Shown piece by piece: positions 18,001 through 21,000 of a stretch of DNA of 64,000 nucleotides. Where the stretch lies: the NCBI GenBank assembly GCA_041489155.1, contig JBGPQP010000001.1, forward strand, positions 64,001 to 128,000, read 5' to 3'. The position numbers are program-made. Origin of the DNA: Candidatus Aenigmatarchaeota archaeon (lineage in GTDB: Archaea; Aenigmatarchaeota; Aenigmatarchaeia; QMZP01; QMZT01). The first letter of the stretch is position 1. Each line of letters starts with the position of its first letter.

Positions 18001-21000
18001 TGGTAACGTTTTTTGCAAGCTTTTCGACGATCTCAAGTGCCTTTAGCTTCGCGAGTCTGAAGCCTTTTGTGACGACGGTCGGGTGTATCTGCTGCTCCAA
18101 GAGTTTTTCTGCTTCATGCAGAAGCTCGCCTGCAATTATGACAGCCGTGGTCGTTCCATCGCCCACTGCCTCGTCCTGCGTTTTAGCTACTTCCACCATC
18201 ATCTTCGCAGCAGGATGCTCTATCTGCATCTCGCTGAGTATAGTCGCCCCGTCATTCGTTATCGTCACGTCGCCCAATGAGTCTACCAGCATTTTGTCCA
18301 TGCCTTTCGGACCCAATGTCGTTCGAACAGCATCAGCCACCAGCTTTGCTGCGGCTATGTTGTTTTTGTGCGCCTCCCTTCCTTTCGTCCTCAAAGTGCC
18401 TTCCGGCAGAATAAATATCGGCTGTATAGTCTGCGCTCCATTCATGAAACCACATCTCCTTTGCCTCTATTTATCGATTTATAACTATCTAATGGATATA
18501 CAGATTATGAATGGGTTATTTATAAGCTTTTCTCCAATTTTTCTAAGCACCGTCATTAACCAATTAATTTAAGCCTTGACCAATATAGATTATCAAAACG
18601 GGCTCGTAGCTCAGCTGGTTAGAGCGCCGGTCTTATAAGACCGTCAGGCGTCATGCCTGATAGCTTTGAACCGACAATCATCGGTTATAGGAAAGCCGGA
18701 GGCCAGGGGTTCGAATCCCCTCGAGCCCATGCTACTTTTTGATTTTTAAAAGGCTGAAAAACCACGATAACTTTTCATACAAATTTTCATACAAATAGAC
18801 TGTTATACTAATGCAGAAACCCTCTGCCAACGTCATTGTTACAGGCACGCCATTGAAAAATAGTTTCATGTAAGCTTGTTCCGTGTAGCTATAATATCCC
18901 ATATTTACCTGAATTATGTCGAAAAGGAAACCCGTCAACGCGCCAAAAATGAAGTAAAGAATGAATCTGTAGTCTCTTTCGCGCACCAAAATGTAGGCAA
19001 ATGATAAGAAAAATACAATGAAACTGGAGGCCCAGAATAACGGAGCGTCAATCATTTTTAAACCTCCTGAAAACAACATCGGCCAGAAAATATGAAATGC
19101 AAATGAACTGAAAATATGCAAAAAGCGTGATGATGGAAACCCCCAAAAACTGCGGATATGCATGATATTCCCACAGGCCGAAATAAACACCAATCGGCTC
19201 CCACACAGAAGCCAGTAACACGGTAAACAACCCCAGAGTTATGTATTTTCCAAGTTTTTTTCTTTCGGCAAACAGTATGAGAATAAGAGGCAGGGACATT
19301 ATCAGGAAAAAGACAAGTTGCTCCATATTTATAATTAAAATAACCACATTAAAACTGATTATATGAAAATCATATCGGATCTGCACATCCATTCCCGTTT
19401 TTCCAGGGCGACAAGCAGCGACCTCAGCATAGCCAATCTCGTGAAATACGCCAAGATGAAAGGCCTTCATCTTCTCGGTACTGGCGACTTCACCCATCCC
19501 GCCTGGCTCCAGGAGCTGAAAAACGAGCTGAAGGAAGACGGGACGGGAATACTAAAAACAGATGACGGGTTTCCTTTCATCCTTTCGGGCGAGATAGCGA
19601 GCATTTACAACCAGAATAATGCTCTGAGGAGAATACATAACATCCTGCTTTGTCCGGATTTTGCAACAGCCGAGCAGGTACATGAAACTCTGAAAGGGAA
19701 GCACGTCAAAATAGACGCTGACGGCAGGCCGATATGCGGCATCCGCTGCCCTGAATTGGTTGAAACCCTGAAAGGCATAAATCCAAGAATCGAAATTATT
19801 CCTGCCCACATATGGACGCCGTGGTTCTCGCTTTTCGGGTCGAAATCTGGTTTCGACCGTATAGGGGATTGTTTTCAGGATCAGACAAAAAACATACATG
19901 CGCTGGAGACAGGCTTGTCTTCGGATCCAGCCATGAACTGGCGGCTGTCACAGCTTGACGGGTTTTCTCTCGTTTCGTTTTCAGATTCCCATTCATTCTG
20001 GCCATGGAGGATCGGGAGAGAGGCGACGGTATTTGATCTGAAACATGTCAACTATGACAATCTGATAAAGGCCTTGAGAACCGGGGATGGTTTAGTGGAG
20101 ACGATAGAAGTCGACCCTTCTTATGGCAAATATCATTATGATGGCCACAGGGACTGTAATGTTTCGCTCAGTCCGGAGGAATCGAAAAAATTGCGGAACA
20201 TCTGCCCGGTGTGCGGGAGGCCGCTGACAATAGGTGTTTTGCACCGTGTGGAAGAACTTGCAGACAGGCCGGAAGGCTTCACGCCCAAAGATTCAAGACC
20301 CTTTCGTTCCGTTGTCCCGTTATCGGAAATAATATCTTTTGCTCTGGGGGCGAGCATGAGTTCTTCGAAGGTCTGGGGGGAATACAGCAGGCTCGTGGGC
20401 GCCTTCGGGTCCGAACTTGGAGTGTTGTTTGACGCAGATGAAGAGAAATTAAGAACTACAACAGAAAGTAAAATTGCAGAACTGATAAACAAGATGGGAA
20501 GCAGCAGGATAAAAATAAAGCCCGGATATGATGGCGTGTACGGGGAAATCGAAACCGAAAGCGTGAGAAGATCTCAGAAAAAAAGTATAACAAAACCTCA
20601 AAAGAGGCTGGTTGATTTCTAAATATATGGTTTCCTTCCGATTACATTTACTGATGTGGATGCGTCCACGAAATAATCATATTCCAGTTTAAATATTAGG
20701 TTTTTCTGTATGTATTTGGCCGTGCTGCCAGGGGGTACCGGCATCTCAATTTCGCATGTCAGGGTCGCTGCTTGGCTCTTCCATAAATCAACAAGCATGC
20801 TTCTCTCGGGAATGCCTGAATTGCATATAAGATTGACCGAAACGTCACTTTCAAAAAAGAGTTTTGCCTTGTTCCAGTTGTCTGTTTTTTGACAGCCTTG
20901 TTGCTCGGGGTTGCAGACAACGCCGCCGCCTATGTTCTGTATTTTTATATTTATAGGGAAGTTGATCTTCCCCTCACCGCTCCAGTATCTTATGGGGCCG

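Follow-up and report, generated by a model that had tools for sequence, protein, structure and literature searches.

We identified, on the + strand at positions 18600–18729 of the window (the whole stretch of 64 kb that was analysed), a gene that is most probably a functional, intron-bearing tRNA-Ile(UAU) of the class named tRNA-Ile3. Its host, an Aenigmatarchaeota (DPANN) archaeon without TiaS or tRNA-Ile2(CAU), would use it to decode AUA, and we put the probability of this reading at roughly 0.88. How AUA can be decoded while AUG is left alone is a classic question in the study of the genetic code. The genome-wide survey's note had arrived at the same interpretation from the UAU anticodon of an intron-bearing gene, the lack of TiaS, the finding of a single elongator CAU tRNA and the rank of AUA among the Ile codons. 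All of these points are borne out below, the anticodon after splicing consistent with a bulge-helix-bulge (BHB) motif.

Structure and proposed splicing of the tRNA gene

The position first reported for the gene (contig C1 of genome G000, 82600–82729) was exact. The Rfam tRNA model RF00005 matches at 18600–18729 with 62.2 bits, above the gathering threshold of 29 (E = 4.5e-11, model positions 1–71), and this is the sole Rfam match within the 64-kb window. Both the sequence itself and a structured scan give a cloverleaf with a complete acceptor stem (7/7), D stem (4/4) and T stem (5/5), and with an anticodon stem of 5/5 pairs including one G-U. They also return the parse proposed earlier, namely a spliced loop CUUAUAA (CTTATA + A), the anticodon UAU and a single 56-nt intron at the canonical 37/38 position. 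The cloverleaf score of 27.5 out of 27.5 given earlier belongs to a scale of the note's own and was not reproduced.

The 5′ exon (18600–18637, +; from Rfam, the structured scan and the sequence) consists of the 5′ strand of the acceptor stem, the D arm, the 5′ strand of the anticodon stem and loop positions 32–37, with the anticodon TAT (positions 34–36) at 18634–18636. The 3′ exon (18694–18729, +; same sources) contributes position 38, the 3′ strand of the anticodon stem, the variable loop, the T arm, the 3′ strand of the acceptor stem and the discriminator A73. The variable loop measures 5 nt (AGGCC) and CCA is not encoded. The tRNA thus combines a class I body with a UAU anticodon, as in tRNA-Ile3. 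Among its class I paralogues in this genome, tRNA-Ile(GAU) comes closest, although the margin is slight (75% identity of the body against 74% for Lys(UUU) and 73% for Arg).

A TATA-like AT-rich box (TTAATTTAAG), found by inspection of the sequence at 18564–18573 (+), 27–36 nt ahead of where the mature tRNA begins, is a possible archaeal promoter from which the gene would be expressed. Likewise, two T5 runs directly past the gene (18736–18747, +) are a possible archaeal oligo-T terminator. A scan for sigma-70 promoters found nothing on the + strand; the sigma-70 model is irrelevant to archaea.

The 5′ exon with its CTTATA loop and the 37/38 intron were recovered in 22 of the 23 family genomes, and the 23rd (G013) shows the 3′ exon alone, at a contig end. 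The conservation noted before is therefore real, but its figures (10 of 11 loci; 18 of 22 genomes) were too low. Across the phylum, a strict pattern for the 5′ half of tRNA(UAU) matched 82 of 301 genomes, while a reversed-pattern control matched none.

The intron (18638–18693, +) was delimited from the pair list and a constrained fold. A segment of its outer helix pairs 18639–18643 with 18682–18686, an inner hairpin lies at about 18644–18660, and the 3′ strand of the central helix occupies 18688–18691. The BHB motif has two 3-nt bulges around a 4-bp helix. Here the central helix is predicted to comprise C32-G18691, U33-G18690, U34-A18689 and A35-U18688, with a 3-nt bulge on either side and with the outer helix offset by the unpaired A18687, so that the motif is present in a relaxed form. 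The last two of these pairs tie the anticodon to the intron in the predicted precursor; pairing of this kind is found in canonical BHB introns generally. The BHB-constrained fold of the isolated arm has −21.2 kcal/mol against −26.1 kcal/mol for the unconstrained fold, and is thus not the minimum-energy form. A homologous intron is present in 22/22 family loci. The script listed 21 of them (L009 was unlisted), and at the chosen 3′ stem each of the 21 keeps three or four of the four central-helix pairs. As a separate observation, a GCTTTGACC-like intron motif seen at the family level resembles part of the outer BHB helix.

The genome encodes an EndA splicing endonuclease of 396 aa on contig C7. 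The protein is built of an N-terminal domain and two domains of catalytic type, and its whole length aligns with PDB 4fz2_A (E = 6e-110). This structure is the epsilon2 enzyme of ARMAN-2 (PMC12397907), and an endonuclease able to cut BHB motifs is thus encoded. In the pathway that we propose, the precursor would fold into the slightly relaxed BHB with loop bases 32–35 paired to the intron, the three-unit epsilon2-type endonuclease would cut at 37/38, and a ligase would join the exons. Since CCA is not encoded, it would be added to the spliced tRNA.

The gene could be read differently by shifting the 56-nt intron three bases earlier, which turns it into a tRNA-Ser(UGA). ARAGORN does so when introns are allowed, and we reproduced its call, Ser(tga) i(36,56), which had already been named as a possible objection; moreover, with the intron so placed, its 3′ end (G A/G A) would yield UGA in most of the 22 family loci. 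The cut that this reading requires, however, falls inside the 4-bp central helix, the variable region is that of a class I tRNA and not the long arm of class II, and a true long-arm class II tRNA-Ser(UGA) is found elsewhere in the genome (C9:8170–8421). When the alternative placement is applied to 52 loci that share one conserved body, the resulting anticodons scatter (UGA 27, UAA 8, UGC 5, UGU 5, others 7), and two intronless homologues (L181 and L182) are both called Ile(tat) by ARAGORN itself. We consider a serine tRNA at this locus scarcely credible. With introns allowed, ARAGORN makes many wrong calls in this genome (Pyl, Stop, Ser for Thr) and was for this reason not relied on; without introns it finds no tRNA in the 64-kb window.

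TiaS domains and CAU tRNAs across the phylum

Most archaea read AUA by means of agmatidine, which is made by TiaS. The present host is a tiny uncultured archaeon that, judging from its sequence, would read AUA directly without this enzyme. The TiaS_FLD domain (PF08489) was found neither in its genome (E ≤ 10) nor in any of the 23 family genomes, whereas four archaeal controls matched; this agrees with the earlier claim that TiaS is missing from this genome and from 22 others of the family. We extended the search to 301 genomes of the phylum, which span 151 genera in 35 families and of which 98 have a completeness of 90% or more, and PF08489 again matched none. The survey had conceded that it relied on one TiaS domain only. 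A second one, PF22641, was also without match in the genome itself (E ≤ 10), again with all four archaeal controls matching, and none of the 301 phylum genomes gave a match above the cut-off of 27 bits (six matches reached 15–16 bits). As judged from Pfam domains in MAGs, the lineage therefore lacks TiaS, as do other bearers of tRNA-Ile3. What had been described as a family trait has to be given a wider scope: with no match above the cut-off to either domain in the 301 genomes sampled, it is a trait of the phylum. For the single genome, which is 89.65% complete and in 39 contigs, the absences on their own are unproven.

The structured scan identified two CAU tRNAs in the genome, one of initiator type (C6:22841–22936) and one of elongator Met type (C7:11927–12100), just as had been stated before; the elongator gene was recovered by a regex scan as well. 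A tRNA-Ile2(CAU) besides these two was not found by the scan, which is blind to split or permuted genes. An elongator-type CAU pattern matched 86 of the 301 phylum genomes with exactly one match each, so that a second match, which would be a candidate tRNA-Ile2, was found in none of the sampled genomes. We fetched 30 of these CAU loci. The acceptor stem was of Met type, like that of the C7 gene, in 29 of the 29 that were readable (L105 was masked), judged by eye; the script parsed just 14 of the 30.

It may still be that TiaS and tRNA-Ile2(CAU) are present and were missed, and that the UAU tRNA is a redundant second AUA decoder. Regions of the genome may be unassembled, and a very divergent or non-homologous enzyme would be invisible to searches with Pfam domains. 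The tRNA census is incomplete too: all methods combined yielded about 40 tRNA genes, many with introns at unusual positions (in the D, anticodon, variable and T regions), and because tRNA detection is poor here, the scan might overlook a tRNA(CAU) whose gene is split, permuted or interrupted in an odd way. Against this stand the agreement of two independent TiaS domains, also among the most complete genomes, and the single match in every genome with the CAU pattern. The joint loss is also a published pattern, described for ARMAN, Nanoarchaeum and Korarchaeum (PMC3239211, PMC3919564). We therefore regard it as quite improbable that both were overlooked, and favour the tRNA-Ile(UAU) as the AUA decoder.

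AUA codons, isoleucine and known UAU systems

Of the 24,665 Ile codons counted in 1000 crude ORFs, AUA supplies 12,608 (51%) and is the commonest. Its rank is as reported before, and the counts are slightly lower than the 13,108 (53%) given then. The meaning of the codon was examined in one gene, that of IleRS on contig C11 (850 bits), in an alignment of 24 sequences with all 23 orthologues from the same phylum. At the 29 ATA columns, the orthologues have ATA in 39%, ATY in 26%, Val in 19%, Leu in 7% and ATG in just 1.4% of cases, while at the ATG columns 48% of the orthologue codons are ATG. This supports AUA behaving as an Ile codon that aligns with AUY and Val and not with AUG.

The alignment bears on the idea that the tRNA carries methionine, or that the codon has in some other way changed its meaning, as it has in some mitochondria. 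Two things prompt the idea: pairing between U34 and G is possible, and AUG is reported to have been bound as well by a UAU tRNA studied in a haloarchaeal system (PMC3895270). We found no support for it in this genome, where the ATA columns of IleRS match Ile, Val and Leu codons and a separate Met-type elongator tRNA(CAU) exists, and we give it almost no weight.

The same codon counts make it highly improbable that the gene is silent or in decay while something else reads AUA. No other AUA decoder was found in the genome for half of its Ile codons. In addition, every stem of the tRNA is intact, and 22 of the 23 genomes of the family keep the gene, with compensatory changes, as in locus L007, where CCAGT/GCTGG replaces the CCGGT/GCCGG of the others.

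An archaeal-type IleRS would charge the tRNA-Ile(UAU). IleRS is described as using a conserved arginine to recognise an acceptor group of base 34, which may be a carbonyl or an imine (PMC11685878), and should therefore accept U34 or a derivative of U. The charged tRNA-Ile(UAU) would then read AUA and presumably avoid AUG, in whichever chemical state U34 is held.

Decoding of AUA by a UAU anticodon without TiaS has been published for Nanoarchaeum, Korarchaeum and ARMAN-2, -4 and -5 (PMC3239211, PMC6000648, PMC8450103). The strategy is thus not new for archaea, and the finding is sound but ordinary for this group. The nearest parallel is Ca. Micrarchaeum acidiphilum ARMAN-2, also a DPANN archaeon and, like ARMAN-4 and -5, described as having a gene-encoded UAU anticodon and neither tRNA-Ile(CAU) nor TiaS (Fujishima et al., 2011; PMC3239211). 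As here, its gene has an intron at 37/38 and its endonuclease is of the three-unit epsilon2 type. The two differ in phylum, in the length of the intron (25 nt in ARMAN-2 against 56 nt), and in the splicing substrate, which is a strict hBHBh′ in ARMAN-2 and a slightly relaxed BHB here. Splicing of the ARMAN-2 precursor was demonstrated in vitro, whereas that of the present precursor is predicted from sequence (PMC3239211 for ARMAN-2).

Nanoarchaeum equitans and Ca. Korarchaeum cryptofilum likewise read AUA with a tRNA-Ile3(UAU) and are reported to be without tiaS and tRNA-Ile2(CAU); the Korarchaeum gene further resembles ours in having an intron and in its best paralogue, tRNA-Ile(GAU) (PMC8450103, PMC6000648, PMC3919564). 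These are single species from other phyla, whereas here all 301 sampled genomes of a phylum are negative for TiaS and half of the Ile codons are AUA. A bacterial counterpart is seen in Mycoplasma mobile, where a small genome without TilS, corresponding to the loss of TiaS, reads AUA with a UAU anticodon; this system differs in being intronless and in using a bacterial-type IleRS (PMC3575796). Our literature search found no publication that links Aenigmatarchaeota with TiaS or agmatidine, or DPANN with the AUA codon.

Intron retention and anticodon modification

Eukaryotic tRNA-Ile(UAU) also has a gene-encoded UAU anticodon and almost always a 37/38 intron that pairs with it, and formation of Psi34 and Psi36 by Pus1 depends on this intron (PMC11408192). 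In the phylum studied here, the 37/38 intron is found in 85 of 87 tRNA-Ile(UAU) loci against 12 of 30 tRNA-Ile(GAU) loci. Among 14 genomes examined in which both Ile genes are present, the intron is in the UAU gene only in eight, in the GAU gene only in none, in both in five and in neither in one; as the genomes are related, these counts are not independent. The intron may accordingly be held by selection and not by inertia, with a step of anticodon maturation that needs the intron-paired precursor and that keeps the U34 tRNA from misreading AUG. It might consist in modifying U34 or U36, or in protecting U34 against another enzyme. If true, these archaea would have their own version of the intron-dependent PsiAPsi route of eukaryotes, working through an enzyme other than Pus1.

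We consider this proposal doubtful. In the elongator tRNA-Met, too, the intron appears to be kept almost everywhere: of 30 loci judged by eye, it is clear in 28, while one locus is uncertain and one incomplete (the script parsed 14). Retention is therefore not unique to tRNA-Ile(UAU). The two relatives with intronless tRNA-Ile(UAU) genes (L181 and L182) also speak against selection, and set the phylum apart from the eukaryotic system.

A Pus1-type mechanism was rejected because no gene of the Pus1/TruA family (PF01416) was found in this genome or in any of the 23 family genomes, whereas 13 of 14 controls matched. A true Elp3 homologue was not found either (the best match reached 43.5 bits, the cut-off being 350), in further contrast to the eukaryotic system. 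Homologues of TruD/Pus7 and of Cbf5 are encoded. An intron that acts as a guide is known in pre-tRNA-Trp (PMC11408192); in the Ile(UAU) intron, inspection by eye found no box C/D or K-turn guide motifs conserved across the phylum.

The practical value of the finding lies in the annotation of these lineages. Because tRNA finders miss or mislabel the gene, annotations wrongly make the lineages appear to be without an AUA decoder. With the gene recognised, a whole DPANN phylum would be added to the few archaea for which decoding with a plain UAU anticodon has been published. Its very high AUA load and near-universal intron would make it a reasonable group in which to study how Ile is kept from AUG.

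An intron-bearing tRNA gene and its predicted splice site

Rfam matches the 64-kb window at a single place, a tRNA (RF00005) at 18600–18729 on the forward strand, scoring 62.2 bits (gathering score 29) over model positions 1–71. A search of the whole genome (1.13 Mb in 39 contigs, 49% G+C, 89.65% complete) also returned it, at C1:82600–82729. Sequence reading and a structured scan gave a full parse: an acceptor stem GGGCTCG/CGAGCCC (7/7 pairs), a D stem GCTC/GAGC, an anticodon stem CCGGT/GCCGG (5/5, including one G-U), an anticodon loop CTTATA + A, a variable loop AGGCC, a T arm AGGGG-TTCGAAT-CCCCT and a discriminator A, with CCA not encoded. 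The 56-nt intron (18638–18693, forward strand) lies exactly between positions 37 and 38, and the anticodon is UAU (T18634, A18635, T18636). The intron-bearing gene recorded in the genome-wide survey's note is thus confirmed. It occupies a gap between opposite-strand ORFs, where an AT-rich box 27–36 nt upstream and a pair of T5 runs shortly downstream are, judging from the sequence, a candidate archaeal promoter and terminator. We read it as a functional tRNA-Ile(UAU), the probable AUA decoder of a lineage without the agmatidine synthase TiaS, and give this reading a probability of roughly 0.88.

The anticodon changes if the intron is shifted, and the exact cut position therefore matters. In the predicted fold, a bulge-helix-bulge (BHB) has the central helix C32-G18691, U33-G18690, U34-A18689 and A35-U18688, with the 5′ splice site within a 3-nt bulge (U36, A37, A18638) and the 3′ splice site within another (A18692–A18694). 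The outer helix (18639–18643/18682–18686) is displaced by one unpaired A18687, so that the predicted motif is slightly relaxed. Enforcing the BHB gives −21.2 kcal/mol, whereas the unconstrained arm favors another fold at −26.1 kcal/mol, which makes the BHB plausible yet not the lowest-energy form of the arm taken alone.

ARAGORN finds no tRNA here without introns and, as noted earlier, labels the gene Ser(tga) i(36,56) when introns are allowed. That placement would put the cut within the central helix of the BHB. A tRNA-Ser(UGA) moreover requires a class II body, while the variable loop here has only 5 nt, and a separate long-arm tRNA-Ser(UGA) is encoded at C9:8170–8421. Over 52 homologous loci that share one conserved tRNA body, ARAGORN's placement yields UGA in 27, UAA in 8, UGC in 5, UGU in 5 and other triplets in the remaining 7, and the intronless homologs in two related genomes (L181 in G120 and L182 in G236) are both called tRNA-Ile(tat) by the same program.

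The tRNA genes of this genome are heavily interrupted, with introns placed in the D, anticodon and T loops and in the variable region. ARAGORN without introns reports 11 tRNA genes and Rfam 26 (E ≤ 0.001) or 34 (E ≤ 10), while ARAGORN with introns mislabels several (Pyl, Stop, Ser for Thr, Tyr for Asn). As detection was this difficult, we wrote a custom scan that permits D-loop, 37/38 and T-loop introns, scores all four stems and is blind to split or permuted genes. A hairpin, GTATGACGCATAC...GTATGCGTC, is repeated within two tRNA introns (C3:6549–6743 and C9:8170–8421), and a tRNA-Arg gene (C13:16884) has a closely similar version, CGACGCATACGCAGTATGCGT, upstream.

TiaS and the CAU tRNAs

The custom scan found two CAU tRNAs, one UAU tRNA (the gene described here) and one GAU tRNA (C4:56373–56491); the remaining candidates were AT-rich and low-scoring and were dismissed as noise. 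The CAU genes are of initiator type (C6:22841–22936; A1:U72, GGG/CCC anticodon stem) and elongator type (C7:11927–12100; acceptor GCCGATG, A73), as the survey had stated. The initiator carries C instead of U at position 33 (loop CCCAUAA) and a 21-nt insertion in its T loop.

An archaeon with tRNA-Ile2, the CAU substrate of TiaS, should have two elongator-type CAU genes. A strict CAU pattern of D arm plus loop, to which split or permuted genes are invisible, matched 86 of 301 Aenigmatarchaeota genomes exactly once each, and none of the 301 had two such matches. By eye, 29 of 30 fetched CAU loci have the Met-type acceptor stem of the C7 gene (L105, masked at its 5′ end, was left out; the script parsed only 14/30).

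The TiaS domain TiaS_FLD (PF08489) was found neither in this genome (E ≤ 10) nor in any of the 23 family genomes or the 301 phylum genomes (35 families, 151 genera; 98 genomes ≥90% complete). The survey had used this one domain; the kinase domain TiaS_TCKD (PF22641) likewise gave nothing in this genome (E ≤ 10) and 0/301 above the cut-off of 27 bits, matches of 15–16 bits in six genomes being read as noise. Four archaeal control genomes were positive in every run. These are domain searches on metagenome-assembled genomes and would miss a non-homologous enzyme. Since neither domain reached its cut-off in any of the 301, the absence described earlier for the family holds there, but is phylum-wide in this sample rather than a family trait.

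Introns across the phylum and possible anticodon modification

By DNA similarity, 22 of the 23 family genomes carry a 5′ exon that includes the CTTATA loop and is succeeded by an intron; G013 has a 3′ exon only, located at a contig end. In relatives the gene is further interrupted by introns in its D and T loops and its variable region. As D-loop introns break our strict UAU pattern, its matches in 82/301 phylum genomes (reversed-pattern control, none) are a lower bound. In one sister family within the order, C27 and A43 at the top of the anticodon stem are mismatched (CCAGT/GCTGA) in every tRNA-Ile(UAU) gene (L161–L171).

An insertion directly 3′ of position 37 occurs in 85 of 87 tRNA-Ile(UAU) loci from 86 genomes (22 from the family, 30 from the phylum pattern search, 35 fetched by coordinates) and is absent in two, though such counts overstate independence because the sampled genomes are kin. 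A tRNA-Ile(GAU) pattern of the same kind matched 42/301 genomes; 18 of 30 GAU loci are intronless and 12 intron-bearing (11 parsed by script, one judged by eye). Where both genes were read (14 genomes), the intron was in UAU only in eight, GAU only in none, both in five and neither in one. One 1.9-Mb genome (G072) has six different GAU matches on short contigs, pointing to a mixed bin or to arrays of tRNA genes. Elongator tRNA-Met appears by eye to have a 37/38 intron in 28 of 30 loci, with L115 uncertain (parsed as intronless), L105 cut short and only 14 parsed by script.

The single splicing endonuclease of the genome is a three-unit protein of 396 aa (C7:38508–39698; L121:859–2049). Besides an N-terminal domain it has two domains of catalytic type, and it matches PDB 4fz2_A over its full length (E 6e-110). 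4FZ2 and 9W2K are described as the epsilon2-type enzyme of ARMAN-2 (PMC12397907), and this type thus occurs beyond Micrarchaeota. The ARMAN-2 enzyme is reported to cleave strict and relaxed motifs (PMC3239211); such broad cleavage would fit the many odd intron positions seen here.

The near-constant 37/38 intron recalls eukaryotic tRNA-Ile(UAU), in which Pus1 is reported to depend on the intron for forming Psi34 and Psi36, and the intron to block Elp-dependent modification (PMC11408192). Against a direct analogy, the TruA/Pus1 family (PF01416) was not found in any of the 23 family genomes, two tRNA-Ile(UAU) genes of the phylum are intronless, and elongator tRNA-Met, too, seems to have its intron at nearly every one of the 30 loci. 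Elp3 was not found in this genome either, so Psi38–40 and xm5U34-type modifications may be lacking or made by other enzymes; TruD/Pus7 and Cbf5 homologs are encoded. A mutant haloarchaeal tRNA-Ile with U34, modified to cnm5U, is reported to have bound AUG too (PMC3895270).

In the elongator tRNA-Met (C7:11927–12100) a TATGAG segment of the intron pairs with the anticodon loop and is followed by TTGA ... GATGA boxes resembling a K-turn or box C′/D′ pair, an arrangement found in nearly all 30 tRNA-Met loci (L091–L120). This intron may be a guide for C34 ribose methylation, similar to the known pre-tRNA-Trp intron.

AUA decoding and known systems

In 1000 crude ORFs spanning 89% of the genome, AUA is the commonest Ile codon (12,608, against 7,320 AUC and 4,737 AUU), at 51% compared with the 53% counted previously. 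Relatives of the IleRS (850 bits) were found at 26 loci among the species representatives, many from Candidatus Aenigmatarchaeota/Aenigmarchaeota, with 50–83% identity. In a codon alignment of this one gene with 23 orthologs, all from relatives, the orthologs' codons at 29 ATA columns are ATA (39%), ATY (26%), Val (19%), Leu (7%) and ATG (1.4%), while ATG columns have ATG in 48%. By this makeup AUA behaves as Ile rather than Met. A conserved arginine of archaeal/eukaryotic IleRS is described as reading base 34, whether G, Psi/U, I or agm2C, by accepting its O6, O4 or imine group (PMC11685878). Because U/Psi34 is accepted, charging of the UAU tRNA seems to need no special adaptation.

Similar systems have been published. 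ARMAN-2, -4 and -5 are reported to have tRNA-Ile(UAU) and to lack tRNA-Ile(CAU) and TiaS, and the tRNA-Ile(UAU) precursor of ARMAN-2, interrupted at 37/38 by a 25-nt intron, has been spliced in vitro (PMC3239211). Korarchaeum has an intron-bearing tRNA-Ile(UAU) similar to its own tRNA-Ile(GAU) (PMC8450103, PMC6000648, PMC3919564); GAU is also the nearest class-I paralog here, narrowly (75% identity vs. 74% for Lys(UUU)). Our literature search found no paper linking Aenigmatarchaeota with TiaS or agmatidine. Given the ARMAN and Korarchaeum precedents, UAU-based AUA decoding here belongs to a known type; the survey's interpretation is supported, with a wider scope (the phylum, not the family) and less novelty than it had claimed. 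The tRNA-Ile(UAU) of Aenigmatarchaeota would be a further case of an already published arrangement.
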